From Candidatus Scalindua sp. (GTDB lineage Bacteria; Planctomycetota; Brocadiia; Brocadiales; Scalinduaceae): a stretch of DNA of 24,000 nt. Under the pieces are notes generated by a model, which had not been told where the DNA came from, made no database searches, and saw only the letters and a list, made by a program, of their open reading frames with translations. The translations under genes were made by a program, and so were the position numbers. Position 1 is the first letter of the stretch. The number at the start of each line of letters is the position of its first letter. Shown here in pieces: positions 7,908 through 22,878 of this stretch. The stretch spans positions 1-24,000 of the forward strand of contig JABGRF010000250.1 of the NCBI GenBank assembly GCA_018648405.1, read 5' to 3'.

Positions 7908-8795
7908 CTAAAAGAACAACTTTATGGTATCTGCCTCTTTTTCTATATTTTCCGCCATCGTTTGCTGGAATCTACTCAGATCAGATACATCCCACTCCAT
8001 TCCAAATGTCTTGGATAGCTTTATCGCATCACCGTAAAAAAGATCGGCTTCAAAAGGCTCTCCTTCTTCCGCCTCATCCTGCATTTCGTAAACATGTGTA
8101 AGGATGTCGGCAACGTGTACAATCATCGGAAAGTTAGACTTTTTGTCTGCTTCCTGTGGGTGATGATGATAACCGACTGCGGTCAGCAGGCTTTCCGGAA
8201 ACATCCACTTCTTGAGAAGTTTCATTCCAACTTCATCATGAGTCATCCCAAAGACGTCTTTCTCTGCTTCAAAGGCTGTGTATTTTATTTTTAAAGGGTT
8301 CATGATTTCTGCCTGCATCATAAATTCACCGGGAAAGGTGATATACATGGCTAATTTCCCTATATCATGAACCAGGCCTGCTACAAATAGTTCACTGCTT
8401 TCTATCTTCATATCGACAGCAATTGTCTTTGCCGCAAGTGCGCAATAGAAGGAGTGCCTCCAGAATTTGTTAATATCAAATTTATTGTTTTTCCCCAAAT
8501 TCTTAAAACTATCAAATGCAACAGTAGATATTACCAGATTCCTGATTTCCTTGAAACCCAGGACAGTTACAGCGTGTTGAAGGGAGGATATTTCTCTTGT
8601 AAGACCATAAAATGGAGAATTGGCAATTTTGAGTATCTTCGTAGTAAGGGATACGTCCGGACTGATAATGTCCATGAGATCGTTCGCTGAGCTTTTCGGA
8701 TTAGCAGTGATCTCCATGACACGAAGTGCCACTGTTGGCAAAGTCGGTATAGATTGAAGCCTGGCAATAAGTGTTGATGCTGCTTGAGAGCTCAT
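7908..8795 (-). CDS. HDOD-domain signalling protein
   Basis: 295 aa. LPTLPTVALRVMEITANPKSSANDLMDIISPDVSLTTKILKIANSPFYGL...SSLQHAVTVLGF, followed by GLVHDIGKL, the typical HDOD layout. Confidence 0.8.
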   Translation of the reverse strand: MSSQAASTLIARLQSIPTLPTVALRVMEITANPKSSANDLMDIISPDVSLTTKILKIANSPFYGLTREISSLQHAVTVLGFKEIRNLVISTVAFDSFKNLGKNNKFDINKFWRHSFYCALAAKTIAVDMKIESSELFVAGLVHDIGKLAMYITFPGEFMMQAEIMNPLKIKYTAFEAEKDVFGMTHDEVGMKLLKKWMFPESLLTAVGYHHHPQEADKKSNFPMIVHVADILTHVYEMQDEAEEGEPFEADLFYGDAIKLSKTFGMEWDVSDLSRFQQTMAENIEKEADTIKLFF

Positions 8796-8917: not shown

Positions 8918-10537
8918 TTACCTCGCCTTACACACCTTTTCACGTGCTTGTTCTAAGACCTCTGCTGGCACAGAAAAAAGTTCTTGCCTCTCAATGATAT
9001 CAAAAAATAGAGAAACCAGCATTGGGTCAAACTGTGTGCCTGCCTTATCAGCAAGTTCTGCTATCATCTCTTCAGGAGACATCTTCGCTTTATATAGCCG
9101 TCCGGATAACATTGCCGCGATTGCATCAGTCATGGCAAATATTCGTGCGCCAAGGGGGATTTCGCTTTCTTTAAGCCCATCGGGGTAACCGGTTCCATTA
9201 TAGTTTTCATGGTGATGCTGAAGTATAGACTTCTCGTTGGCAAAAAAATCGAACATGTCTATCAGTTCTGATAGCATGTACGGATGGTCTTCAATCTCAT
9301 TCCTCTCTTCATTGTTTAACACTTTATTTTTAGCTTTTAAAGTTTTTCTCAGTAAAACTTTAAAATTGTCGTGAAAATTTGCCGAACGCTTAAAAGTTTC
9401 GATAATAGAGGGAGGAAGGGCAAGTGTTTCACCGATAAGGTTAATGTATCTCTTTACATCGTGATTATGTTGCTTGTGTTCCTTACCACCTAGATCACGA
9501 GTCAGAAGTTCTAACGATTCTATAGAAGATTTTTTTGTTTTTTCTAAAATCACTGAAAGACTTTCTTTCAGGTGTCCTAAATCACGGTCTTCACTAATTT
9601 TATTATCTTCAGATATCCAGGAAGGTTTCTTCATGTAAACAGTAATCCTGTTTCTTCCTTCTGCCTTAGATTGATAAAGGGCTTTGTCTGCACATGCAAT
9701 AATCTCTCTACCCTCTGTTAGTTGGTGCTGTTTTAGAGATGCAATACCTATACTTACAGTTACAGTTGTTGAATTGTTACCATCGACATACTTCTTCTTT
9801 TCACATCTTGTACGAATTTTTTCAGCCAGTTTTTGTGCCCCGGCAATACCGGTGTTCGGGAGAAGTACCATAAATTCTTCTCCACCATATCGGATGGGAA
9901 TATCAGTTTTTCGTGCATTTTGCTTTAGCTCCTCAGAAAATTCACGTAAAACTAAATCACCAAAGGTGTGCCCAAATGTATCGTTAACGTCTTTGAAACA
10001 GTCCAAATCAAGCAGGATACAAGATAAATCTGTTTTGTATCTCTGCGCACGTGCAAACTCCGTTCTAAGGATTTCCAGCATGTAGTGACGATTATACAAG
10101 CCAGTTAACTCGTCATTGCTTGCTTGTTTTGCAAAATTGTCACGTACAGACAAAAGCTCTTCATTCAATTCAATAATACGCTTTCCTGCCTTCAGGCGAA
10201 CCCTTAGTTCATTTTGATCGAACGGCTTGGTAATATAGTCGTCTGCCCCTGCATCCATTCCTTTGACAAAATCATCATGTTTGCCCTTAGATGTAAGTAA
10301 CAGTATAAATGTATACGGTTCCCTGGCCAGTTTTCTTACCTTACGGCATATCTCTACACCATCCATTCCAGGCATCATCCAATCGAGTATCAGAAGACTT
10401 GGCGCATTTTTTGACTTAATTACATCCCAGGCATCAAGACCATCCTTGCATGATACAACCTCATAGCCCATGTCTGTCAAAAGCTTTTCCAATCTGCGCC
10501 TTGTTATATTCTCGTCGTCTGCAATTAATACTTTCAT
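8918..10537 (-). CDS. response regulator with REC, GGDEF (diguanylate cyclase, I-site present) and HD-GYP (phosphodiesterase) domains
   Basis: REC: MKVLIADDEN...LILDWMMPGMDG...ITKPF (nt ~10178-10537). GGDEF: DELTGLYNR...RKTD-IPIRY-GGEEF, with RxxD exactly 5 residues before GGEEF (nt ~9638-10120). HD-GYP: FHDNFK ... HHHENYNGTGYPDGL...IPLGARIFAMTDAIAAM (nt ~8978-9505). Its start overlaps the Hpt gene's stop (ATGA at 10534-10537). Confidence 0.85.
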   Translation of the reverse strand: MKVLIADDENITRRRLEKLLTDMGYEVVSCKDGLDAWDVIKSKNAPSLLILDWMMPGMDGVEICRKVRKLAREPYTFILLLTSKGKHDDFVKGMDAGADDYITKPFDQNELRVRLKAGKRIIELNEELLSVRDNFAKQASNDELTGLYNRHYMLEILRTEFARAQRYKTDLSCILLDLDCFKDVNDTFGHTFGDLVLREFSEELKQNARKTDIPIRYGGEEFMVLLPNTGIAGAQKLAEKIRTRCEKKKYVDGNNSTTVTVSIGIASLKQHQLTEGREIIACADKALYQSKAEGRNRITVYMKKPSWISEDNKISEDRDLGHLKESLSVILEKTKKSSIESLELLTRDLGGKEHKQHNHDVKRYINLIGETLALPPSIIETFKRSANFHDNFKVLLRKTLKAKNKVLNNEERNEIEDHPYMLSELIDMFDFFANEKSILQHHHENYNGTGYPDGLKESEIPLGARIFAMTDAIAAMLSGRLYKAKMSPEEMIAELADKAGTQFDPMLVSLFFDIIERQELFSVPAEVLEQAREKVCKAR

Positions 10538-10878
10538 TCAACAAATTCCTTTAATGCATTTACCAGGCATTCTACCTCTTTCACCAAAGTATTATAAGCC
10601 TCCTCAACTCCATCCAGTCTGCTTTCCCTGCCCATCAGCTCCAATTGTAAAGCTGCTTCAAAAGCTGCTTTCTCTTCAAAATTAGCAATTGCTCCTTTCA
10701 GCTTGTGTGCCGCTCTCTCTATATCGTTACTATTACGGCTGTCAACAGCCTTTTGAATTCCGGAAAGTTGCTCTGGGACGTCATTTATTAATACCTCTAT
10801 AAGTTCTCCTAAAAACCCTTCATCTCCATCAAACTTTTTGAGTAACTCGTCCTTATCAAATAATTTATTACTTTCCAT
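10534..10878 (-). CDS. stand-alone Hpt (histidine phosphotransfer) protein
   Basis: 114 aa, helical, with the phospho-His motif AAHKLKGAIANF. Translationally coupled to the downstream REC-GGDEF-HD-GYP gene. Confidence 0.8.
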   Translation of the reverse strand: MESNKLFDKDELLKKFDGDEGFLGELIEVLINDVPEQLSGIQKAVDSRNSNDIERAAHKLKGAIANFEEKAAFEAALQLELMGRESRLDGVEEAYNTLVKEVECLVNALKEFVE

Positions 10879-11052: not shown

Positions 11053-11628
11053 CTAACCCGGTAATCTTCCCAGTTGTGAAATCAGTTTTTTACGAATGCC
11101 TTCCGGTGGCAGGACATAATCTACCTTCCCAGTTTTAATAGCTGACTTGGGCATTCCCCAGACTACACTGGTGATTTCATCCTGGGCAAACGTAACTCCT
11201 CCTATAGATTTTATGTAGCTTAATCCGTCTGTCCCATCCATTCCCATACCAGTCATAATGACTCCTGTAATATTGTCTTCCGCTGTTTTCCTGATTGATT
11301 TCATCGTTACGTCCACTGCTGGACGTACAAAACACACCTTCGGGCTTTCAACCAGTTGTATCATCTTATTATTAATGAGTTTCAGATGAACTTCACTTGG
11401 TGCAAAGTATACAACTCCGGGTTTCATTGATTCTCCATGACTGGCAATCTTAACTTCCATTTCAGTTAAACTATTTAATGTCGCACATAATGACCGGTTT
11501 GCACACTTTATCATATGCTGAACGAGCACGATACTTGCGTCCAAAAGTGGTAACCCGTCAAAGAAACCTCTCAATGTTTTAGGGCCACCAGTTGAAATTC
11601 CAATAATTACTATATTTCGTTTTTTCAT
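11053..11628 (-). CDS. CheB-type methylesterase/deamidase catalytic domain, no receiver domain
   Basis: 191 aa. The sequence contexts of the CheB Ser/His/Asp triad are all present: IGISTGGP, LVQHM, TGMGMDGTDG. Also AQDEITSVVWGMPKSAI. The N-terminus starts directly in the catalytic domain. Confidence 0.8.
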   Translation of the reverse strand: MKKRNIVIIGISTGGPKTLRGFFDGLPLLDASIVLVQHMIKCANRSLCATLNSLTEMEVKIASHGESMKPGVVYFAPSEVHLKLINNKMIQLVESPKVCFVRPAVDVTMKSIRKTAEDNITGVIMTGMGMDGTDGLSYIKSIGGVTFAQDEITSVVWGMPKSAIKTGKVDYVLPPEGIRKKLISQLGRLPG

Positions 11629-11655: not shown

Positions 11656-12030
11656 CTACTGTACGTATTCAATATACTCTGTCACTACTTCCAAAAGTTC
11701 TTCGGAAGTGAATGGTTTTCTCACGTAGTCCATTACGTACTCTGTCAGCTTTTCCAATTTTGGACAGGGATCATGCACTGCCGTAAGCATGCAGATAACA
11801 TTTCCTTTGTACAGCCCTTCGTCCTCAATCGCTGCAATAGTATCCCATCCGTCCATTTTCGGCATCATAACGTCCATCAGGATCAAGCCTCTGAAACCCT
11901 CTCTCAGCCTGTCCAGACATCCCTGTCCACTCTCAACAGCACAGATTGAATATCCACTTGTTTTGAGAATAATATCAACAGTAGACCTGATGGAGGGGTC
12001 GTCATCTACCACCATTATTTCCTTATTCAT
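11656..12030 (-). CDS. single-domain response regulator (REC only)
   Basis: 124 aa. VVDDDPS..., phospho-acceptor context LILMDVMMPKMDG, MLTA, VRKPF. Confidence 0.85.
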   Translation of the reverse strand: MNKEIMVVDDDPSIRSTVDIILKTSGYSICAVESGQGCLDRLREGFRGLILMDVMMPKMDGWDTIAAIEDEGLYKGNVICMLTAVHDPCPKLEKLTEYVMDYVRKPFTSEELLEVVTEYIEYVQ

Positions 12031-12051: not shown

Positions 12052-13182
12052 CTATTTCTCACTTTGTCTGATTGGGAGTGTAAAATGCACACTTGTCCCG
12101 TGTCCGGATCCCTGACTTTCAGCCCGGATAGATCCACCATGATTTTCGACTATTCGTTTGCAGATGGTAAGGCCCAACCCGGTTGAGGAACGATCAGTCC
12201 TTGAATCATCTGCCTTGTAGAATTCTTCAAATATACGTTTTTGCTGCTCGATAGTCATTCCTATCCCTGTATCTTTAATGGATATCTCTACATTATCATC
12301 CTTCAGAAAACTTTCAAACGTTACAACTCCATCTCCATTTGTATATTTAATTGTATTGCTAACAAGGTTATGAATTAATTCTTTGATCAACATTCTGTCT
12401 GCCTCAATGTCAAGAGGCGTGGTCGTATTGTTCACGATCTCAATCCCATTCTCTTTGAATACAGATGATAGGCTTTCAATGGTATTCCTGATTTCACTTG
12501 CGAGATCAACTTTTTCAACTCTTAACGAGACTTCGGGTGAATTCAATTGTGCAAGTTGAAGTGTTCTTTCTGTCAGATTTCTCATGTAGTCGACATTATT
12601 CATTATCAAATCCAGCATTTTCTTAGACTCGACATCCTCAGTTCGTTCGGCGACCATTGGCAAAAGTGCTACAAGAGGAGTCAGGGGTGTTTTCAAATCA
12701 TGACTGAGTTGGTTGACAAACGCATCCTTTTGTTCGAGAAGCTGTTTAATTTCCTCTGTTCTTTGATCCACACGCTCCTCAAGCTCAAGGTTCATGGTTG
12801 CTAACTGGTCTTGCAATTGTTTGGTACGTAAGGCCGCTCTTACCCGGGCTCGTAATTCGAATGAGTCAAAAGGTTTTGTGACGTAGTCTACAGCACCTAG
12901 ATCCAGCCCTCTGACACGGCTTTTATTGTCATCTGCAGCAGTAAGGAAAACGACCGGAATCATAACAAGTTCGGCATCATCCTTCAGGATCTGACAAACC
13001 TCAAATCCGGACATATCAGGCATGTCCACATCCAGAAGAATCAAATCCGGCTTTTCCTGTCGAGCCGACTCCAGTGCGCTTTTTCCATCCTCTACGCAGA
13101 GAACTTCAAGGCCTTCCTTTTTCAGATGAACTTCGGCAATAGCCATGATTTTTGTGTTATCGTCTACAATTAAAACTTTCAT
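12052..13182 (-). CDS. cytoplasmic REC-HisKA-HATPase hybrid histidine kinase
   Basis: 376 aa. REC (MKVLIVDDN...LILLDVDMPDMSG...VTKPF), a coiled-coil linker, H-box FVNQLSHDLKTPLTPL, and ATPase G-boxes DTGIGM and GLGLTICKRIV. No TM segment. Confidence 0.85.
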   Translation of the reverse strand: MKVLIVDDNTKIMAIAEVHLKKEGLEVLCVEDGKSALESARQEKPDLILLDVDMPDMSGFEVCQILKDDAELVMIPVVFLTAADDNKSRVRGLDLGAVDYVTKPFDSFELRARVRAALRTKQLQDQLATMNLELEERVDQRTEEIKQLLEQKDAFVNQLSHDLKTPLTPLVALLPMVAERTEDVESKKMLDLIMNNVDYMRNLTERTLQLAQLNSPEVSLRVEKVDLASEIRNTIESLSSVFKENGIEIVNNTTTPLDIEADRMLIKELIHNLVSNTIKYTNGDGVVTFESFLKDDNVEISIKDTGIGMTIEQQKRIFEEFYKADDSRTDRSSTGLGLTICKRIVENHGGSIRAESQGSGHGTSVHFTLPIRQSEK

Positions 13183-13293: not shown

Positions 13294-16200
13294 TCAGGTT
13301 TGTACCTTTCTGCCTTGATCCGCTGCATGGCAAAGTACTTCAAACTCGTCCAAAGCAGTTGTGCAGGTTTCAATATCCCCAGCTTTTGCTGCCTCTTCCA
13401 GTGTCTTTGCTACTTTAGTCAACATTGGGTATCCATAGCTGCCTCCTGCGCCTTTCATCTGGTGCGCCAGCCGTTGTAGACCTTCATGGTCACTACTCTT
13501 TAACGCCTTGCGCATAGACTCTGTATCTTCTTCCAACCCGGCAACAAACTCATCGATGAGTACTCTCAGATCTGAATCATCTGCATATTCGGAATAAATT
13601 GTCTCTGTCACATCTTGCTTTGTCTCTTTAGATGCTGTTATTTCCGGTACTGATGTTGTCGATAATTGCCGTTTTTTTCCGTTACTCAGGTTCCTGTCTA
13701 TTGCATCGGCAAGCGTCTTTTTGTTGATCGGCTTGGATACATAATCGTCCATACCAGCCTTAAGGCACTTTTCGCGATCGCCCTTCATGGCATTAGCGGT
13801 CATGGCTATTATCGGGGTTTTATGATTCAGAACGGCTGAATTCTCATCACGTATGGTACTGGTAGCTTCATAACCGTCCATCAACGGCATATGGCAATCC
13901 ATCAATACCAGGTCGTAATCAAATTTCTCCAACAAGTCGACGGCCTCTTTGCCATTAACAGCGACATCCGTATGGTATCCAAGTTTCTTTTCCAATATAT
14001 GTAATGCAATCTTCTGGTTGACAACATTATCTTCTGCCAGAAGTATGCGAACACGTTGTTTATGATCCTCAGAGATAGAATATTTGGTAACTATTTGACC
14101 GGTTGTATCTTCCCCATCACTTGCAGTTTCTCCGGTAACTATCCTGAGACAATCCAGCAGCAGTGATTGCTTTATCGGCTTATTCAGATATGCCGCAAAT
14201 CCCAACTCTTTAAAATGCTCTGCATCCCCTCTACTACCAACAGAAGTCAGCATCACAAGGATCAGGTTCTTAAATTTTGGATCTGCCTTGATATCCTTGC
14301 AAAGTGATTCTCCATTTACCTCAGGCATACTATAATCAAGCAGGGCAATCTCAAATGGATCTTTATTATTAACAGCTTCATACAGCTTCTTCATGGCTTC
14401 CTTAGCAGAGATAGCCTCTTCAGTCCGGCAAGACCAGGATTCGAGGTACTTGCTAAAGATGTTACGATTAGTACCGTTATCGTCAACAATTAATACCCGT
14501 TTATTTTTTATGTCTCCCAGATCTGTTGGAATCGGCTGCTGATCATAAGGTTGTTTTTCCATCACAGCTGTAAAAAAGAAAGTAGAACCTTCCCCCTCTT
14601 TGCTTTTCACACCGATTTGTCCTCCCATCAATTCAGTAATTTGTTTAGAAATTGCCAATCCCAGTCCGGTGCCGCCATACTGCCTGGTAGTAGATGCATC
14701 TGCCTGAGAAAATGATTTGAACAGACGATCCATACGATCAGCAGGTATTCCTATGCCGGTATCTTTGACATCAAACCGTACTGTGACATGAGATTCTGTC
14801 TCTTCCACAAGAATTACATTAATTTCTACTTTTCCGCTGTCTGTAAATTTGATGGCATTTCCGGTAAAGTTAATCAAAACCTGCCGTAACCGTCCCGGAT
14901 CACCACGCAATAGGGACGGTACTTCCGGGCTCACAAAATAGGATATTTCCAGACTCTTCTCATATGCCTTAATGGCGAGAATATCAATGGTACTCTCCAC
15001 GGCAATACGCAGATCAAAATTTATGTTCTCTAAATCCATTTTCCCGGCCTCTATCTTGGAGAAATCCAGGATGTCATTAATGATGGTAAGTAGAGAGCCT
15101 GTACTGTCTCGAACAGTATCTGCAAATCCACGCTGTTCATGAGTTAACTTTGTGCCTAGTAAGAGATCCGCCATGCCCATTATACCGTTCATTGGTGTGC
15201 GTATCTCATGGCTCATATTGGCAAGAAACGTACTCTTGGCTGTATTAGCAGCTTCTGCTGCCTCTTTGGCAACATGCAGTTCTTCTTCCGCCCGTTTTCT
15301 TTCCGTTACCCTGCCCAATTGTGTAGCAAGGGGAGATATGATTTGCAGTAAGGATTGATCCGGTTCTAACTTTTCTGAGGAGAAGAACTCTAACACTGCT
15401 ACAACTTCGTTTCTTTCCAATATGGGGAAAGCAAATCCGCTTTTAACTTCAGTGCTTTCAGATAATCTTGCCCTGGGGAAATTAGGATCCTCTATTAAAT
15501 CTGAAATCCACAAGGGTTTTTTGCTTTCCAAAACCCGTCCCGGCAAGCCGGCACCTTTGACAAATGTTGTAGTTTCAGTATCTTTCATAAACTCTTTATA
15601 CCTCTTGTAATGATCGAAATACCATAGGTCAGTAGGTGTCATATTACCTTCTGCGTTCAACATGTATACATGTCCAAGTGAGAAGTTTGTAAACTCGCAT
15701 ACTTTGCCAAGACTGGTACGCATAGCTTCTTCTAAAGTAAGTGCTTCATTGGCGGTGACTGCTACTTCCTGCAATAGACGAACAAGTTTCGCCTCCTTAC
15801 GTAATGCTACTTCTGCCCTTTCCCGCGCATCTTCAGTATACCTGCGTGAAATACCTATGCTTAACACATTTGAGAGTTTACGCAGAAATGTTACTTCGTT
15901 CTCCACCCGCTTGTGGCCTTCCCGGAGATAAAGTACTAAAACTCCGAGCAGTCTCTCTTCCTGCATTATGGGTATGTTGTAGAGTCCATGCGGTTTCATA
16001 CCTTCAAAGCGAATATCGTGACGATCGTCTACACAATCAGAGAATTGAACATCACGCTTCTCTGCCGCTCTGCCGCACATACATTTCCCGAAAGGGACCT
16101 GTGCGCACAGCGTCTGTAGTTCTGGTGCAAGATTGTGATTTGTGACGAGTTTCAGGGTATCTGTTTGTTCATCTAAGTCAGTGAGAAAGATACCTCCACG

Positions 16201-18774
16201 GGAGAAAGAACCCAGCCATGGCAGAGAATCCAGTATCATATTCAATGACATTTTGAGAAATTCTTGTGTATCCAGAGTTTGATGCGTCAGGTGCATGACT
16301 TTGCCGAGGATCTCTTCTGTAATAGCGATCTTTTCTGCCCTTTTTTGGGCGTCGAACGCTTCTTTCATCTTGACCAGAGCAATTTTTTCACTCCTTTTAA
16401 GCGCTTCTTCTATCCGCTTGCGTCTTGTAACGTCTTCATTAACTGAAGTAAAGTGAGTAATATTACCATCACTGTCTTTGACGGGCGAAATAGATGACTG
16501 TTCCCAGTAGAGTATACCGTTTTTCTTTTTATTGCAGAATTCTCCATGCCAGTCACTACCGGATTTGATAGTATCCCACATTTTTTTATATTCTTCGAGG
16601 GGAGTCTTTCCGGATTTTATTATGCTTGGGGTTTGCCCAAGTACCTCTTCAGAAGTGTAACCGGTCAATTCTGTGAACTTGGGATTGATATATTCAATCT
16701 TGCCTTCATAATCCGTAATCATTACTGAAGTGGGGCTTTGTTCAACAGCACAAGATAAACTTTTTCTTTCATTAATTTCTTTAGTAAGTAGATTAGTCAT
16801 CATGTTAAAGCCGTTGGCCAGTGCTCCAATCTCATCTCTCGACTTAACTTCAGCTCTTTGCAAAAAGTCGCCTTTTGCAATTTCTTGTGAAACCCCGGTT
16901 AATTTTTGGATAGGGTTTAGAACCCGAATTCTCAACCACTGAATGAAGAGAGCGAAAACAAAAATTGTAGAACCAAGAATTATGTAGCCGATCCACATAC
17001 CTCTCTTTGCAGTCGCTTCCATTTTCAACACGGCGACACTTGCATCTCTACTGGATAAATTTGATATGGCCAATCCTGTATTGATTGCTTCTGTTGCTGC
17101 GTCAAACCAGGCTGCAGCGCTAACCGGATACTCTATCCCTTTGACTTGTTTAATAAATATCCAGGACTTGTCTGTTTCATAATCAAAATCAAGAAAAAAT
17201 GGTTTGTAAACAATTACTTCTCCTGATGCCAGACGGATATTTCCTTTCTTTCCTGAAAGAATCTGCTCTTTAGCATCAGGATAGTCTTGTTTTATATTAT
17301 GATGTGATATGTTCAATCGCTGCATCATTCCCCACTCTTTCACTTTATCCGGGTGGTGGATGTAGAATCCGTTCTGATTAGCTAATATATAGTCTTCTCC
17401 TTTTTCAATTTCTATGCCTTTGTGTAAAAGAGAGGAAGTATTTACTGACAAATTGAATACTACTATACAGCTTTGCTCTCCGTCTGTATGAACGGGTGTT
17501 GCAAAACGCATAACAGGTTTATATGGTGTTTCAATGCTTCCGTGTTCTATGTTGAGATCAAGCGAAGATACATAAATACTTCCTAATGGTAGATTTATGG
17601 AATCTGTAAAATAGTATCTGTCACTCTTGTCTTGTAATAGTGGGCCACGAATTATTTTGCTGGTATCACCATCAAAATTAACACGCACTCGCTCATAACC
17701 GGAATTATCCAAAATCCTAATCTGTCCAAAGACAGTTTTTATCTGAGAAAAGGAGCTAATTAGATTTTCAACAGAAATCAGCTGCTCAGATAGTTGAGTA
17801 TTGTCTTCTTCCCTCAATGATCTGGCTAATGCGACCACACTCTTATGCTTGCTCATACTCAGCAGATCAGTAGATATTCCATGTAAATAATTACGAAATG
17901 TCAGAATTCTTTTATCAATTTGTGTTTCAGCTCTCTTTTGCTCTTCTTCTTGCCTCTCACTTGCCGAGAAAACGTTCTCCCTTAAAAGCTGAAATGATTG
18001 CATGAATTCTTTTTCAAATGTCTCTATAGCCAGTTTCATTCGACTTGAAGTAGTTGGAAACTTTTTTAAAGCTATCACTTGTCCTAGAGATTGGTCGACT
18101 ACTGAACGGTAGCGTTTGATTTCTTTGGTTGTCTCATCAGAGAAACGTTTTCCGGATGCAATAGCATTACCGACAAGAGCCCGCTCTTTTCCTGCATATT
18201 CGCATAACCTTGCAATATTGGGGCGCAGGACGCTATTTAAATAGAGTATCGTCTCCTCTTCTCTTTGCGGGGTAAAGGTGGTATCGAGCAAGTTGAATTC
18301 ATTATTAATATTAAGGGTAACGATATCAATCCACTCATCTTTGGAAATGCCTCTGTTTTCGATTCTGGGACGGGTAAGCGTATGGGCCTCATAACTCCTG
18401 CGCCACGTATTCAGTCTTTCAACAAGTACTTTATCCTTCATGATACTCAGAAGCTTTCTTATCTCTTCTTCAGCCTGTGAGACTTCGGAATCTCCCTTCT
18501 CTGCCATTTCAAGAAATGTTGAAAACAGGGGCGATGAATTTCCTTTGTCATCCCCTATTATCGTAGCGCCATAACCACGTTCAATAGCTTGCCACCCAGT
18601 TGCATTATTCAGGTGAATGACAATTTTATTCCTTATAGTATATTCATCAGATAGTTTTTTCGTTTTGAAAGATCTTCTTATTGACATTCCTGACAGCGTA
18701 GTCAGTACACATAATAAGATCACCGAAACAAATAGTGTTTGATATTTTAGTGTTTTAAATTTATGGGTCTTCAT
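13294..18774 (-). CDS. giant transmembrane hybrid sensor histidine kinase: large periplasmic sensor, HAMP, PAS, 2 x GAF, HisKA-HATPase, 2 x REC, Hpt
   Basis: The track ORF begins at a TTG (18840). The first ATG is at 18774 ([24 protein letters not shown]..., a basic N-terminus running straight into TM1), so I prefer 18774. Numbering below is from the TTG. TM1 ~35-53. Periplasmic ~54-615 (nt ~16996-18681), with a NIT-like helical module ([12 protein letters not shown] and [15 protein letters not shown]) and a Cache-like module ([14 protein letters not shown]...RYYFTDS...). TM2 [26 protein letters not shown] 637-690. PAS 697-808. GAF1 ~850-1000. GAF2 ~1020-1178. H-box [15 protein letters not shown] (His codon 15208-15210). 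HATPase [20 protein letters not shown]1 ([11 protein letters not shown]). REC2 ([13 protein letters not shown]). Hpt ([13 protein letters not shown]). Confidence 0.85.
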
Positions 18775-18851
18775 ATTATTTCTTGTCAGGTTATCTTCGA
18801 AAGGGTGGATAATCTGTTGATCATTGAATATACGCGACAAAAGTTAATAGT

Positions 18852-19130
18852 TTATAGATCTGGCAGTGTAATGTCATGTTCTCCTGCAATCTTTTTTGCA
18901 AGCATTATACAGCCTATCTTTGCCGTCACTCCAGCGTAGCCAACGTAACACTCTATTAATTTTTCTGTCGCACTGTTGCCGTCACCCGCGAAGCTTTCTA
19001 CAGTACCGTTATCAAGAACCTCTAATCCGGCCTCTTTTGCACCGGCCAGAGCCTTTTCGGTTCCCAGCACTCCAAATTGCCGTTGAACAATTGCCGTTAA
19101 TATTGCAAGATAACCGTTTTGGTTACTCAT
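18852..19130 (-). CDS. hypothetical 92-aa soluble protein (no family recognised)
   Basis: MSNQNGYLAILTAIVQRQFGVLGTEKALAGAKEAGLEVLDNGTVESFAGDGNSATEKLIECYVGYAGVTAKIGCIMLAKKIAGEHDITLPDL. No TM helix or signal peptide. Tightly packed between the di-iron protein gene (35-nt gap) and the giant kinase gene. The coding call rests on ORF length, position and strand only. Confidence 0.5.
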   Translation of the reverse strand: MSNQNGYLAILTAIVQRQFGVLGTEKALAGAKEAGLEVLDNGTVESFAGDGNSATEKLIECYVGYAGVTAKIGCIMLAKKIAGEHDITLPDL

Positions 19131-19165: not shown

Positions 19166-19900
19166 TTAAACCCAGGTGCCCACTTCTAATTCCCGAGCGG
19201 CCTGCATATATATTTCGATGTCTTTGTCAATTATAGAACCATGTTGCGGGCATATTCTTTCTATTGCTATTGTTTCTAATTTATCTAATGCGCTATCTAA
19301 TGCGAGTTTTGATCCCAGATATGGTTCTGTAAAAGCTTTAAATGCTTCGAGATAATTCTCGTTTGCGTATAGATTCCAATCTATAGAGAATCCCCCGAAT
19401 ATATCGCTTGAAAAGACCGTCTTTGTCTTTTCGTCGTATGTTACCATTGAACCCGCAAAGTGTACGTAAGGGGTATGCACAAACGTTAAAATTCTGCCAC
19501 TTTTTAATGAAAATGGTTCACCGTCTTCAACAGTAATCACCTCAGAAACCGAGTCATAATATCTCATAAATGGCGCCGCTCTGGTTGGTGTTATAATCTT
19601 TACCCTGGGATTAACTATCTCTTCGAACAGTGGTATCGCGGCACATATGTCAGGGTCCTGGTGATGAGCTACAATGTAGTTGATTCTCTCCGGTTCCACA
19701 ACTGAACACACTTTTTCCTTCACTATGTTAAAATGTTCCGGTGCTCTCGAACCGGGATCAAAAAGTATCACATCTTCTCCATCATCCAGAATATATGGAT
19801 TATTGGAAAATCCCGCTTTTCTATCTGCAAAGCCCACCCAATAGATTCCTTCAACTATCTCGTGTGCTTTTGATTCATCATAAGTCTTAAAAGCATTCAT
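19166..19900 (-). CDS. stand-alone metallo-beta-lactamase-fold di-iron domain protein (flavodiiron-protein core without a flavodoxin domain; ODP-like)
   Basis: 244 aa. Colinear with the FDP N-terminal domain: EGIYWVGFADR...NPYILDDGEDVILFDPG, INYIVAHHQDPDICAA (in place of H-x-E-x-D-H), VHTPYVHFAGSMVTY, VFSSDIFGG, ICPQHGSII. AGGAG Shine-Dalgarno 13 nt upstream of the ATG. Confidence 0.7.
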   Translation of the reverse strand: MNAFKTYDESKAHEIVEGIYWVGFADRKAGFSNNPYILDDGEDVILFDPGSRAPEHFNIVKEKVCSVVEPERINYIVAHHQDPDICAAIPLFEEIVNPRVKIITPTRAAPFMRYYDSVSEVITVEDGEPFSLKSGRILTFVHTPYVHFAGSMVTYDEKTKTVFSSDIFGGFSIDWNLYANENYLEAFKAFTEPYLGSKLALDSALDKLETIAIERICPQHGSIIDKDIEIYMQAARELEVGTWV

Positions 19901-20055
19901 TTTTATTTCACCACTCCTAAATAGATTAACTTTCAGGTTAATAGAAGATATTGTATTTGTATTTCAAGTTAGATCGTTGTCAGCATTGTAATTTTGATAC
20001 AATAAGCGCAGTTTAGAGAGCAAAATAGTTGCCAATTGGACTATTAGAAATGTTT

Positions 20056-20069
20056 AATGTTTAAACATT
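20056..20069. promoter_or_regulatory. perfect 14-bp palindrome AATGTTTAAACATT in a divergent intergenic region (candidate operator)
   Basis: The sequence is its own reverse complement. It is preceded by a half-site-like direct copy, aaatgttt (20048-20055). It lies 156 nt upstream of the di-iron gene start and 416 nt upstream of the cytochrome gene start. Confidence 0.3.
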
Positions 20070-20403
20070 TTTACTGGTTTTATACATTCGTGCTAACCTT
20101 TGAGAGCTCTTTGTTGAACTGAGTAATTATCGGAGCGTCTTTTGACGGCTTGTCCTGCATAACTCTATGCGTAGTTGGTGTTTATGACTTTAGTCAGAGA
20201 GGAGGGTCTTTTCATATTACGCTAGTTAAAAAAGATCTCTTTTGTAGATAAATTTTACAAGACGGTATAAATTTCAAAATAGTTTATCTATTTATCAGAT
20301 AGAGAACAAAAAAGTATGAGTAATACGGGTAGTATATGTTGTTATTTTAAACAAAATATCTGTTTTTTGAGTGATTGTGTATCAATTTTCAGAATATCAT
20401 CTA

Positions 20404-20484: not shown

Positions 20485-22878
20485 ATGAAAAATATACAAT
20501 TATTGATAGTAGTAATTCTTACAGCTCTTTCCGGGATGATTGGAGCGTGCAAAGCTGTACCTGAATCCGGAACCATGCAGACAAATACAATATCTGATTC
20601 CGCCATTACCAGAAGCGTCAGTGCCAAAAATATCTCAAACGTAGAGGGTGAAGATAAGGGTTGTATGTCATGCCATGAAGGGATTGAGGTTATTAATGAC
20701 AGAATGCAGCCGTATCTCCTGCTGTTTGCCGAACAGAAATATGGAAAGGGAAGAGGGTATGAGTGTGCTATCTGCCACGAGGGTGTTCCATCATCTGACA
20801 ATAAAGAGGAATCCCATACTGGTCTCATCCCCAATCCATCCAGTATGTGGGTACTTCATGAGGGAAAAGGTTGTGCAAAGTGTCATGATGGAAAGGGGAG
20901 TATTACTACTTTAATGGGTAAGCCTCTTGATGAGCCAGTTGGAGGGGAGATAATGTCAGGCCAGACTGCCACCCTTGACCCGTCAGGTACCCTTGGCAAA
21001 AACTATACTACCCGTCTCTCCAAGTCGCTTCATTCACTTCAGACGGGTATCGTAAATAAAAATCTCTCTTCAAACGGTGTCATCTCGAAGGGCACCTTTC
21101 CCTATGGCAACTTTGACATGGTGGATACGGAAGGTTCGGTTCCTAGTGTAGGCACTGATAAATTTAAGGAGTGGACAGAGAAAGCCATTAAGTTCGGATA
21201 TCTGAGAAGGCTTGATAGTGTGGAGGAGATACCGGACTTCGAGAAGGGCGTAAGTATATTCGGATCGGAAGAAAAAGCTGGTTTCTCAGATACTTATAGG
21301 AAACAGTGCGGACGATGCCATGTATGGGGAGAAGGAAGAGGTAAAAGGGGTGATCTCAGGGCATCGGGCTGTGCCGCCTGCCACATGCTTTATGGAAACG
21401 ATGGGAAGTACGAGGGAGATGATCCACATATTAAAAATACCGGTGAGCGTCCTCATCCGTTAAGACATCGTATTACTACAGCAATTCCGGCAGCTCAGTG
21501 TACTCACTGTCACACACGTGGAAAGAGGATAGGAACTACCTTTGTGGGGATGTTTGAGTTTGATTATATAAAGGACGCTCATGCCGCTCCTTTTGATGAA
21601 AAAGGAGAGGCGCAGAAACCTCTCTTTACGAAAGAGTATATGCATGTGCGTAAGGATGTCCATTTTGAAAGAGGTATGCAGTGTGTCGACTGTCACACGT
21701 CAATTGATGTGCATGGTGACGGCAACATTTACCCGGCAACGTTATACCAGGTGGAGATCAGCTGTTACGACTGCCATGGGACACCGGAAAAATTTCCCTG
21801 GGAGCTGTCCGTAGGGCATGGAACACCAGTAACTCTGGATGGTGCCAGGGGGACATACAAAAAAAATAGTGTGGAGTATCTGCTTACTTCAAGAGGAAAC
21901 GTAAAAGAGAACTGGAGAAGAGAGGGAGATACGTCATATGTATACAGCAGGTTTACCGGAAAGAAGCATAAGATACCTCTGTTGAAGGAAATAGATGAAA
22001 CCGATACCTACAAGACGAAACAGGGTAAGGTTGCTATGTCGACCATTCACAAGCATATGGAGAAGATGGAGTGCTATGCGTGCCACGCCACATGGGCTCC
22101 TCAGTGTTTTGGTTGCCATATGGAATATGACAGAAGGGTGGAGGGTACCGACTGGATTACTACTTCGAAAAAGGTTGATCCTGTAACCGGCAGGCAGACG
22201 GTGTCGAAAAAACCTGGTAACCTGGCATTGGAAAATCGTTCCTTTCTGAGGTGGGAAAGTCCAATATTGGGAATGAATTTGAGGGAAAAGGTATCACCGC
22301 TTGCTCCTGGGTGCCAGGTTTTCTACACATATATTGACGAAAATGGAGAGATTAAGGCACTTAATAAAACATACACCACTTCAACCGGGCATAACTCTCC
22401 AACACTTGCCCCTCTACAACCTCATTCAATCTCACTGGTTGCACGGACATGTGAGGATTGCCACACTAATCCCAAGGCTATAGGATACGGTACCGCTAAT
22501 TCAAGGAGCGCCGGGAAGATTCTGGGAGACAGCCCTCTCTTTCAGGATTTGTCAAAAGGTGTATATGGTGATATTCCTGGTGCGAAGACCGGTAAATGGC
22601 AAGTCCCGAAGATTACTGACTTTCCATTTGCACTTGACCAGCTGGTTACGCGGAGCGGCAAACAGATTCAGAACATGCCGCTGCCGGAAGACAGGCCGTT
22701 AAATGAGAAGGAAAGAAATATTGTAGAGAGAGAGGGATTATGCATGGGATGTCATCAATACCACGGAACACCAGAATGGGACAAGATCATAAAAAAATAT
22801 GGAAGGGCTGAGACTCCGGAACAGCACGAAAAGATCATTGAAGAAGCATTCAAGAGCTTTATCGAAAAAGTGAAATAA
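20485..22878 (+). CDS. dodecahaem c-type cytochrome, probable lipoprotein
   Basis: 797 aa with 12 CxxCH motifs: CMSCH, CAICH, CAKCH, CGRCH, CAACH, CTHCH, CVDCH, CYDCH, CYACH, CFGCH, CEDCH, CMGCH, with first Cys at residues 60, 94, 130, 275, 296, 339, 400, 427, 530, 541, 656 and 753. N-terminal signal peptide with a lipobox-like LSGMIGAC (Cys22). Confidence 0.85.
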   Translation: MKNIQLLIVVILTALSGMIGACKAVPESGTMQTNTISDSAITRSVSAKNISNVEGEDKGCMSCHEGIEVINDRMQPYLLLFAEQKYGKGRGYECAICHEGVPSSDNKEESHTGLIPNPSSMWVLHEGKGCAKCHDGKGSITTLMGKPLDEPVGGEIMSGQTATLDPSGTLGKNYTTRLSKSLHSLQTGIVNKNLSSNGVISKGTFPYGNFDMVDTEGSVPSVGTDKFKEWTEKAIKFGYLRRLDSVEEIPDFEKGVSIFGSEEKAGFSDTYRKQCGRCHVWGEGRGKRGDLRASGCAACHMLYGNDGKYEGDDPHIKNTGERPHPLRHRITTAIPAAQCTHCHTRGKRIGTTFVGMFEFDYIKDAHAAPFDEKGEAQKPLFTKEYMHVRKDVHFERGMQCVDCHTSIDVHGDGNIYPATLYQVEISCYDCHGTPEKFPWELSVGHGTPVTLDGARGTYKKNSVEYLLTSRGNVKENWRREGDTSYVYSRFTGKKHKIPLLKEIDETDTYKTKQGKVAMSTIHKHMEKMECYACHATWAPQCFGCHMEYDRRVEGTDWITTSKKVDPVTGRQTVSKKPGNLALENRSFLRWESPILGMNLREKVSPLAPGCQVFYTYIDENGEIKALNKTYTTSTGHNSPTLAPLQPHSISLVARTCEDCHTNPKAIGYGTANSRSAGKILGDSPLFQDLSKGVYGDIPGAKTGKWQVPKITDFPFALDQLVTRSGKQIQNMPLPEDRPLNEKERNIVEREGLCMGCHQYHGTPEWDKIIKKYGRAETPEQHEKIIEEAFKSFIEKVK

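Follow-up and report, generated by a model that had tools for sequence, protein, structure and literature searches.

The window analysed here, a stretch of 24,000 nucleotides, comes from Candidatus Scalindua, an anammox bacterium. Its minus strand carries a co-directional signalling cluster, which is given here from its first gene to its last.

19166..19900, minus strand: ODP-family (oxygen-binding di-iron protein) sensor, 244 aa (PF19583, PDB sequence matches, AF2 model, conserved ligand columns)
18852..19130, minus strand: 92-aa partner, unannotated family (no Pfam, NCBIfam or PDB match; homologues next to ODP; fusions)
13294..18840, minus strand: hybrid histidine kinase, 1848 aa as listed (Pfam domains, TM scan)
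12052..13182, minus strand: REC-HisKA-HATPase kinase (Pfam)
11656..12030, minus strand: single-domain response regulator, REC (Pfam)
11053..11628, minus strand: CheB methylesterase catalytic domain, 191 aa, no regulatory domain (PF01339, E 1.6e-54)
10534..10878, minus strand: stand-alone Hpt phosphotransfer protein (Pfam)
8918..10537, minus strand: REC-GGDEF-HD (GYP-type) protein, probable c-di-GMP output of the relay (Pfam)
7908..8795, minus strand: HDOD-domain protein, end of the co-directional cluster (Pfam)

The 244-aa ORF opens with an ATG, an AGGAG stands 13 nt upstream of this start, and the gene for the 92-aa partner follows 35 nt downstream. As a preliminary description of the DNA had stated, the ODP gene is the first of the signalling cluster, and the arrangement is syntenic in other Scalindua genomes. 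The gaps between the genes are short, RBS-like sequences are present and no terminator-like site lies within the cluster, so that an operon is plausible; an Rfam scan of the window and scans for promoters, terminators and repeats around the genes returned nothing informative. The true start of the hybrid kinase is likely the ATG at 18774. Two TM segments of this kinase flank a NIT-like and Cache-like sensor region (the NIT match, at 24.5 bits, falls below the cut-off of 24.9), after which come HAMP, PAS, two GAF, HisKA, HATPase, two REC and Hpt domains. The CheB domain keeps the STGG, VQHM and GMGxDG motifs. A 12-haem cytochrome c is encoded divergently in the window, and a divergent ORF of similar size (801 aa) occupies the same place in another Scalindua locus, L006.

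The preliminary description had likened the 244-aa protein to the MBL-like di-iron core of flavodiiron proteins (FDPs), with an altered metal-ligand motif and an end at the point where FDPs begin their flavodoxin domain. The ORF is real, and all the residues listed there sit at the positions given: H79-H80-Q81-D82-P83-D84-I85, Y145-V146-H147-F148, S164-S165-D166-I167-F168-G169-G170 and P218-Q219-H220-G221. The likeness to the flavodiiron core proved to be far above chance. In a phmmer search against PDB sequences, FDPs matched residues 29-229 at E values of 1e-15 to 1e-6, and Foldseek aligned the AF2 model (pLDDT 94.1) with ROO (1e5d) at an E value of 1e-20 and a TM of 0.84. Residues 29-229 pair with residues 48-249 of the 410-aa T. 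maritima FDP; because the alignment stops at about residue 249 of that protein, the 244-aa protein does end where the flavodoxin domain would begin.

Profile and structure comparisons placed the protein more precisely. It matches PF19583, the Pfam model of the ODP family, at an E value of 2.1e-50 (171.7 bits against a cut-off of 27.2) over profile positions 2-194 of 194, and its top PDB sequence matches are the ODPs of T. maritima (6qrq) and T. denticola (6qnm). A profile made from 38 homologues retrieved the T. maritima ODP at 1.6e-39, the T. denticola ODP at 3.5e-32 and the best FDP at 4e-25, and the flavorubredoxin models of NCBIfam reached 48 bits against a cut-off of 635. The AF2 model gave a TM of about 0.8 to 6qrq, 6qwo, 6qnm and 6r9n over the full length of these structures. 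A Zn-dependent MBL-fold hydrolase was considered and rejected, as the closest structures in Foldseek were all FDPs or ODPs and hydrolases appeared only from rank 44, at a TM of 0.60-0.70 or lower. The 244-aa protein is a typical representative of the ODP family, which was known before, and no altered form of the flavodiiron core. By itself it is of limited interest, as the family already has crystal structures and a Pfam model and gains a further representative, this time from an anammox bacterium.

The ligand motif is read in the same light. The first FDP motif, H-x-E-x-D-H, is absent, and H80-Q-D82-P-D84-I85 stands in its place; in the alignment, D82 pairs with the FDP Glu and I85 with His90 of the T. 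maritima FDP. The substitutions relative to FDPs were described correctly, but the motif is not altered, since H-Q-D-P-D-(V/I/L) is the norm in ODPs. Both 6qrq and 6qnm carry HQDPDV, (L/M)HS(T/P)G, FSGDI and APQHGA at matching alignment positions, and the ODP pattern H-x-D-x-D-(hydrophobic)...H...D...Q-H appears here as HQDPDI, H147, D166 and Q219-H220. Among 117 homologues, H80, Q81, D82, P83, D84, H147, D166, Q219 and H220 are 98-100% conserved; the ligand columns alone reach 99-100%, with 116 or 117 of the 117 sequences in agreement. His79, which had been singled out as an extra residue, occurs in 64 of the 117 and is variable. The zinc motif H-x-H-x-D-H is also absent, its second and fourth His being replaced (Q81/D82 and I85). 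According to a passage in a review of MBL structures (PMC7785958), a Gln at motif 5 of the T. maritima ODP takes the ligand place of the last motif-2 His. This Gln corresponds to the invariant Q219, which the preliminary description had not listed, and the predicted ligand set comprises H80, D82, D84, H147, D166, Q219 and H220. We infer the metal and the sensed ligand from sequence: these residues would form a binuclear site, with Gln in place of the second His of the FDP H-x-E-x-D-H motif.

ODPs are described in a passage of PMC6978683 as auxiliary sensors that bind iron and oxygen directly. In a protein of this type, an FDP-like core that belongs with the ODPs and has no flavodoxin domain, a sensory rather than a reductase role is the family-based expectation, and to this extent PF19583 membership and the missing flavodoxin domain uphold the earlier proposal of an ODP-like sensor in place of an O2/NO reductase. 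The further proposal that it feeds a kinase does not hold as a conserved link, given that the conserved neighbour is the 92-aa protein. Alternatively, the 244-aa protein might be catalytic, either as a split flavodiiron-type O2/NO scavenger with a separate electron donor or as a metallo-hydrolase or phosphatase acting on a phosphorylated signalling protein. Its fold and most of its ligands are those of FDP O2/NO reductases, a Zn-reconstituted structure of the T. maritima ODP exists (6qwo), and the iron-peroxo ODP studied by Muok et al. in 2019 reportedly makes phospho-CheA less stable, as would be expected if ODP acted on a kinase in the manner of a phosphatase. However, genes for a flavodoxin, a rubredoxin or a reductase are missing from the cluster, conserved Cys or His residues and other cofactor motifs are lacking in the partner family, and neither the zinc nor the FDP form of the first motif is present. 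Moreover, a sister clade of ODPs is fused to nucleotide cyclase output domains, as is typical of a sensor module. We thus regard a catalytic function as very unlikely and favour a sensor.

The conserved genomic neighbour of this ODP subfamily is the 92-aa protein, not the kinase. A first HMM, built from Scalindua 92-aa proteins only, matched ORFs that immediately follow ODP in loci of Asgard, Nitrospinota, Nitrospirae, Aminicenantes and Firmicutes, among others. With the iterated HMM, the partner was found in 55 of 83 ODP loci, or 55 of the 58 with a stand-alone ODP, directly downstream (gaps of -12 to +49 nt across the 55 loci), with many Asgard archaea among them. A 91-aa ORF after the ODP of L084 was considered as a divergent partner and is not one. 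Homology of the partners across lineages is established by profiles only, and BLASTP between the Scalindua and Lokiarchaeum partners found nothing. In Nitrospirae, ODP and partner are covalently fused in two proteins (L081 and P0197, 64% identical to each other). None of the 25 long ODP fusion proteins has the partner, and 24 of them end in a cyclase-like C-terminus; these proteins form one clade, and the partner is present in all other ODP clades.

The partner belongs to a family of at least 90 clusters at 50% identity, with near-invariant R17, G20, G23, G35, A70 and K71. Its AF2 model (pLDDT 92.3, pTM 0.85) predicts a helix-helix-beta hairpin-helix-helix fold, for which Foldseek returned no match in the PDB (best E value 1.8). 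The new observation of this work is that an unannotated 92-aa family, matched by no Pfam, NCBIfam or PDB entry, is encoded after ODP sensors in a wide range of bacteria and in Asgard archaea.

Two further contexts tie the partner to signalling proteins. In the Scalinduaceae loci L001, L009 and L010, a partner domain (51% identical, E value 9e-29) is N-terminal on a CheB methylesterase that adjoins ODP; the fusion in L001 is P0161, where the domain is joined to CheB_methylest. As a possible split orthologue of this fused CheB, the window CheB domain was aligned with both CheBs of L001; it is 38% identical to the fused CheB and 42% to the other CheB there, and is not specifically closest to the fused one. 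The second context is a distant branch of partners, collected by scanning metagenomes with P0169 as the query. These have no ODP nearby and lie just upstream of a GAF-PAS-HisKA-HATPase kinase in all 31 loci whose flanking DNA was long enough; the loci are not independent events, being related to that one query at 52-90% identity.

Whether ODP and its partner act on the neighbouring kinase depends on how these linkages are weighed. The conserved signalling linkage proposed earlier holds in Scalindua, where the kinase keeps its position in L006, L007 and L008 as PAS-GAF hybrid kinases after the partner; the L008 type is a soluble kinase of 1111 aa. It fails in most lineages, where the third gene is a housekeeping one (pyruvate kinase, PolA, Ham1, epimerase, M20 peptidase). 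ODP and partner could instead be a self-contained two-gene module, with the small protein itself as the effector that binds, for example, the membrane, nucleic acid or an unlinked target, and with the position of the kinase incidental. The heterogeneous third gene agrees with such a module, and so does a conserved 410-aa protein without kinase domains that comes after the pair in the Loki and Thor lineages. Asgard partners also carry a 17-20-aa tail with a net charge of +8 to +12 that resembles a targeting or binding element of its own; however, bacterial partners lack this basic tail. Kinase adjacency is kept in four Scalindua-type loci, the partner domain is fused to CheB within a Che cluster, and the ODP-less partner branch always adjoins a GAF-PAS kinase, all of which argue against a self-contained module. 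We consider it unlikely.

Overall, we think it probable that ODP is an O2/NO/Fe(II) sensor and that the 92-aa protein connects it, as an adaptor, with the hybrid kinase downstream. Family membership, ligand pattern, fold, ODP-partner linkage, fusions and Scalindua synteny are shown by this analysis. If it works like its counterparts in T. denticola and T. maritima, ODP would take up two Fe(II) and after that O2, or possibly NO in an anammox cell, and would report the ligand by a conformational change, not by catalysis. The signal would most likely be relayed through the 92-aa protein, and in Scalindua the pair would probably modulate the hybrid histidine kinase that follows; physical contact between ODP and partner and the action of the partner on the kinase are what we infer here. 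The kinase may feed a phosphorelay (REC-HK, REC, Hpt and the CheB-like esterase) ending in the REC-GGDEF-HD-GYP enzyme, and thus in c-di-GMP turnover. Because the gene after ODP and partner is a housekeeping one in most lineages, the kinase link is lineage-specific and could be coincidental. In addition, the hybrid kinase has its own large periplasmic sensor region together with PAS and GAF domains, and therefore needs no extra input.

The same architecture could serve a different signal, namely NO or nitrite-derived NO in place of O2/Fe(II), and the cluster would then be connected with the nitrogen metabolism of anammox. The anammox pathway passes through NO as an intermediate, and di-iron sites of the FDP type bind NO; the identity of the organism as Candidatus Scalindua therefore speaks for this signal. 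The weak match of the downstream kinase to NIT, a nitrate/nitrite-sensing domain, points the same way but is below threshold, and the divergent cytochrome c gene, with its positional counterpart in L006, would also suit this reading. However, ODP and partner occur in many non-anammox lineages, including Asgard archaea, and no sequence feature tells O2 from NO. We consider NO as the specific signal somewhat doubtful, and keep the broader proposal of an O2/NO/Fe(II) sensor with its adaptor.

The pair matters more than the ODP, since it suggests a signal route for ODPs that are unattached to chemoreceptors and provides a group of "hypothetical proteins" with a family name and with a role that can be tested. 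We tentatively propose, and hold it to be quite possible, that the 92-aa protein represents a signal-adaptor domain which is widespread but so far unrecognised, and whose fold lacks any relative among solved structures. This domain would couple di-iron ODPs to outputs such as kinases or CheB-type esterases and would be the ancestral way in which the ODP subfamily of bacteria and Asgard archaea passes on its signal, the polybasic tail being gained in the latter. If this is true, ODP and partner would be a two-protein O2/NO/Fe sensing module of strict anaerobes, among them the archaea most closely related to eukaryotes. Such a compact module would be at work in oxygen-sensitive organisms such as Scalindua of oxygen-minimum zones, Nitrospinota, and Loki-, Thor-, Heimdall- and Hodarchaeal lineages. 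As regards anammox, the cluster offers a candidate route by which exposure to O2 or NO may reach signalling by c-di-GMP.

Compared with known systems, FDPs (FprA/ROO/flavorubredoxin; 1e5d, 1vme, 1ycf, 4d02) have an MBL-like di-iron core that superposes on the 244-aa model at a TM of 0.80-0.84, and the contexts of H147, D166 and H220 are common to both. FDPs, however, have a C-terminal flavodoxin (FMN) domain, whereas the ORF described here stops at residue 244. In the ODP-nucleotide cyclase fusions of the sister clade (for example L036, L046, L047 and L056), the ODP domain is 42-48% identical to the 244-aa protein and matches PF19583 at about 1e-50, but a linker of some 120 aa connects it covalently to a class III cyclase domain (PF00211) and no small partner gene is present. 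The linker was searched as a possible cryptic copy of the partner, which was undetectable (hmmsearch --max, best E value 0.08). Canonical CheB has a REC domain in the N-terminal regulatory position, where L001/P0161 has the partner domain; the latter has no Pfam match and a different predicted secondary structure, and is not a REC domain.

The closest known systems are the ODPs of T. denticola (TDE2498; 6qnm, 6r9n) and T. maritima (6qrq, 6qwo). The fold is shared, the length is similar (about 245-255 aa, no flavodoxin domain), the motifs HQDPD(V/I), xHxxG, FS(S/G)DI and PQHG are common to all, and these genes also adjoin signal-transduction genes. Identity is only about 22-26%, and as it is only around 25%, the ligand specificity of the 244-aa protein may differ from that of the characterised ODPs. 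In the T. denticola/T. maritima system, ODP works with an MCP/CheA array, its gene being coupled to that of a cytoplasmic MCP which has no sensor domain and signals to CheA, whereas in Scalindua it is followed by the 92-aa protein and then the hybrid histidine kinase. The window encodes no MCP, CheA, CheW or CheR, and Pfam found no MCPsignal, CheA or CheW domain in its ORFs of at least 100 aa, so that coupling to chemoreceptors of that kind was not seen; the related Scalinduaceae ODP of L001 stands at the end of a Che cluster. In the summary of Muok et al. 2019 given by the TREND paper (PMC7319448), ODPs have been recruited to several signal-transduction pathways beyond chemoreceptors.

The 244-aa protein that heads the signalling cluster is a regular ODP (oxygen-binding di-iron protein). 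Its ORF begins with an ATG, with AGGAG 13 nt upstream, and the residues named in the preliminary description (H79-H80-Q81-D82-P83-D84-I85, YVH147F, SSD166IFGG and PQH220G) all lie where it placed them. The claimed likeness to flavodiiron proteins (FDPs) is real: in a phmmer search of PDB sequences, residues 29-229 pair with 48-249 of the Thermotoga maritima FDP (410 aa; E about 1e-15), and a dozen further FDPs also align. Because the match ends at about residue 249 of 410, the window protein does stop at the flavodoxin boundary. In these alignments, D82 is opposite the FDP glutamate and I85 is opposite His90, which had been read as an altered ligand motif with an extra histidine.

We found no alteration. 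The protein covers the full model of Pfam PF19583, "ODP family beta lactamase" (E 2.1e-50; 171.7 bits against a cut-off of 27.2), and its top PDB sequence match by phmmer is T. maritima ODP (6qrq/6qwo), whose own motif is HQDPDV. Both the T. maritima and T. denticola ODPs carry HQDPDV, (L/M)HS(T/P)G, FSGDI and APQHGA, whereas the window ODP has HQDPDI, VHFAG, SSDIF and CPQHGS in the same columns. Among 117 full-length homologues, D82, D84, H147, D166, Q219 and H220 are invariant, H80 and P83 are each kept in 116 and Q81 in 115, and position 85 is always Leu or Ile. His79 occurs in only 64 of the 117 and is unlikely to be a ligand. In T. maritima ODP, a motif-5 glutamine takes the place of the third His of motif 2, as stated in a comparison of MBL structures (PMC7785958). 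The invariant Q219 beside H220, absent from the residues listed in the preliminary description, fits this replacement.

We rejected an FDP identity because, in addition to the PF19583 match, a 38-homologue profile favored the ODPs (T. maritima, 1.6e-39; T. denticola, 6qnm/6r9n, 3.5e-32) over the best FDP (4e-25), and the NCBIfam flavorubredoxin models scored far below threshold. A hydrolase-type MBL was rejected on structural comparison: the AlphaFold model built on the alignment (mean pLDDT 94.1, pTM 0.92) matched ROO, both ODPs and other FDP cores with TM 0.78-0.84 in Foldseek, whereas Zn hydrolases of the MBL fold first appeared at rank 44 (TM 0.60-0.70). The nearest homologues, from Candidatus Scalindua, are 90-93% identical. 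On its own, the window ODP is thus an ordinary member of a known family, whose signature had been taken for novelty.

The genes downstream of the ODP gene share its strand, separated by short gaps and lacking any terminator-like site (domains from Pfam):

19166..19900, minus strand: ODP gene, ATG start, 244 aa
19130-18852, minus strand: 92-aa partner, 35 nt after the ODP gene, with its own AGAGGA
13294-18840, minus strand: hybrid kinase, 1848 aa; two TM segments flanking an NIT-like and Cache-like region, then HAMP, PAS, two GAF, HisKA, HATPase, two REC and Hpt
After the hybrid kinase, minus strand: REC-kinase
After the REC-kinase, minus strand: single REC protein
11053-11628, minus strand: CheB catalytic domain with no regulatory (REC) domain
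After the CheB domain, minus strand: Hpt protein
After the Hpt protein, minus strand: REC-GGDEF-HD-GYP protein
Last of the cluster, minus strand: HDOD protein

The order of ODP, small ORF and PAS-GAF hybrid kinase is repeated in three other Scalindua loci (L006, L007 and L008), and in L008 REC-, CheB- and Hpt-sized ORFs follow the kinase. The TTG start of the window kinase at 18840 is probably wrong; translation from an ATG at 18774 (MKTHKF...) would still begin ahead of the first TM segment. In its periplasmic part (residues about 56-613), a Pfam match to NIT (nitrate/nitrite sensing) narrowly misses the cut-off (24.5 against 24.9 bits), and a Cache-like HK sensor domain comes next; for an anammox bacterium, nitrite or nitrate would be a sensible input. 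The Ser/His/Asp motifs of the CheB domain are apparently intact, and the surrounding two-component cluster contains no MCP, CheA, CheW or CheR. Divergent from the ODP gene, a plus-strand gene (20485-22878) encodes a 797-aa cytochrome c7/c3-like protein with 12 CXXCH haem motifs; the AT-rich spacer of 584 nt includes an 18-nt imperfect palindrome at 20040-20078. L006 has an 801-aa opposite-strand ORF at this position and L008 has none. L007 holds two ODP-partner pairs about 5 kb apart (3956-5012 and 9033-10089) with identical partner HMM scores, which could reflect recent duplication or a co-assembly artefact.

The partner has no match in Pfam or NCBIfam, and an initial homologue search returned only "hypothetical proteins" of Scalindua and Brocadiales. 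In Lokiarchaeum and on a planctomycete-like contig, ODP is likewise followed by a small ORF, and these ORFs aligned with the partner end to end. We took 79 ODP loci from species-representative genomes and searched all ORFs with an HMM of Scalindua partners only, which detected ORFs right after ODP in Asgard archaea, Nitrospinota, Nitrospirae, Aminicenantes, Atribacteria and Firmicutes (E 1e-11 to 1e-3). Iteration, which converged after three rounds, yielded 57 partner ORFs, which fall in 55 of the 83 ODP loci; a few loci duplicate the same genome. All but four are on the ODP strand directly 3′ of the ODP gene, and the spacing, where the start is clear, is -12 to +49 nt; bigger overlaps are over-long ORF calls. 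The exceptions are telling. In the Nitrospirae locus L081, the partner is fused to the ODP C-terminus in one 355-aa ORF, and an independent fragment (P0197), 64% identical to it, has the same architecture. In three Scalinduaceae loci (L001, L009 and L010), the partner domain, which shares 51% identity with the window partner (E 9e-29), is the N-terminal part of a CheB methylesterase of 298 aa; its gene lies immediately upstream of ODP and closes a CheW-MCP-CheD-CheR-CheB cluster. A Thorarchaeal locus (L025) has a second, 110-aa paralogue (13591-13923) 4.9 kb downstream of its ODP pair, followed by a 171-aa ORF; thus, Asgard genomes also carry partner paralogues that are not beside ODP.

The neighboring gene represents a conserved, unannotated family whose predicted fold lacks a match among solved structures. 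The AlphaFold model from a 42-sequence alignment (pLDDT 92.3, pTM 0.85) places helices at 4-22, 24-33, 51-66 and 68-84 and a beta hairpin at 36-47. Foldseek found no match in the PDB (best E 1.8, TM < 0.5), nor did a profile search of PDB sequences, and thirty-two diverse members gave no consistent Pfam match even at E up to 1. R17, G20, G23, G35, A70 and K71 are near-invariant; with no conserved Cys or His, a redox or metal cofactor is unlikely. Only Asgard partners carry an extra C-terminal tail of 17-20 residues with a net charge of +8 to +12; bacterial partners lack it. The tails are polybasic and partly amphipathic, e.g. LLAKKRNRRRSIFKRRKS (L004:10714-11037, L015:8714-9025, L022-L042), and could serve membrane or nucleic-acid targeting.

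The partner is missing from 28 loci. In 25 of these, a protein of 540-620 aa joins an ODP domain through a linker to a C-terminal domain, the last being a class III adenylate/guanylate cyclase by Pfam in five of six scanned; a cyclase-like region is common to 24 of the 25. We found no similarity between linker and partner. In a neighbor-joining tree of ODP domains, the fusions form a single clade, and every non-fusion clade, including the Scalindua, Aminicenantes/Campylobacterales, Asgard and Nitrospinota/Nitrospirae groups, has the partner. Partner presence in 55 of 58 stand-alone ODPs versus 0 of 25 that bear a C-terminal fusion is the pattern expected of a small protein that relays the ODP signal. 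A role as maturation factor is disfavored, since fused ODPs would need such a factor too, yet none has it. The fusions (L036, L039, L041, L044, L046, L047 and L050-L076; ODP match at about 8001-8720), which would be di-iron sensor cyclases of the one-component type, occur in Spirochaetes, Anaerolineales, Victivallales, Atribacteria and others.

The narrow profile of Scalindua partners, run against 1.84 billion representative proteins, returned 90 clusters at E up to 1e-3; of 89 newly returned, 28 were nearest to ODP-linked proteins and 60 to a second branch, which we sampled via one member, P0169, in 62 metagenomic loci (L085-L146), many from groundwater or sediment. None of the 62 has an ODP gene. 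All 31 whose downstream DNA reaches 2.5 kb or more encode a GAF-PAS-HisKA-HATPase kinase of about 585 aa on the same strand, starting 5-800 nt downstream, although these loci are mutually related and amount to a single observation at lineage level. The branch thus forms a conserved cassette: the small protein, often an uncharacterized ORF of about 108 aa, the kinase and, in the one locus inspected for it (L104:3001-5842), a REC protein. The kinase association is independent of ODP and connects the domain family with cytoplasmic GAF/PAS kinases, to which type the kinase after the window partner belongs. Within this branch, P0163, P0164 and P0168 are acidic proteins with two or three tandem copies, and P0178, P0199 and P0241 have long P/Q/S/T/A-rich tails.

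Outside Scalindua, the gene after the pair is usually non-signalling (pyruvate kinase, DNA polymerase I, Ham1, epimerase, M20 peptidase or luciferase-like oxidoreductase), so the unit under selection is the ODP-partner pair, and its downstream target is either encoded elsewhere or lineage-dependent. A myxobacterium departs from this with a HAMP-cyclase-hemerythrin protein, and Loki and Thor lineages do so with a conserved protein of about 410 aa (L004:11072-12304, L025:9061-10287, also L019 and L029). The latter has no Pfam or NCBIfam match; Loki and Thor versions are 26% identical over full length (E 7e-65), and the N-terminus (..VLLSGFLSAI..) by eye resembles Roadblock/longin-type regulatory domains. 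Linkage to signalling genes is conserved through the cyclase and CheB fusions, the Che cluster and the Scalindua kinases; the link to this hybrid kinase is lineage-specific.

Overall, we suggest a putative mechanism. The window ODP would bind two Fe(II) and then O2 or NO, the latter an anammox intermediate, and the resulting conformational change may be read by the 92-aa partner. In Scalindua, this reading would modulate the hybrid kinase, which might act through REC, Hpt and REC-GGDEF-HD-GYP proteins on c-di-GMP levels. The abstract of a 2019 ODP paper reportedly describes destabilization of phospho-CheA by iron-peroxo ODP; this would agree with a direct ODP effect on a phosphorylated kinase.

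In the literature, ODP is an auxiliary sensory subunit that directly binds iron and oxygen and interacts with its cognate sensor-less chemoreceptor (PMC6978683, PMC7666581), and three groups are described: neighbours of MCP genes, operon members alongside other signal-transduction genes, and fusions with signalling domains (PMC7319448). A stand-alone ODP heading a non-chemotaxis signalling cluster was therefore anticipated and is not new. The partner family is common to bacteria and Asgard archaea, and Rosetta-stone fusions join it to the sensor as well as to an output enzyme. This conserved partner makes the locus a new variation on ODP signalling and yields a concrete, testable hypothesis.
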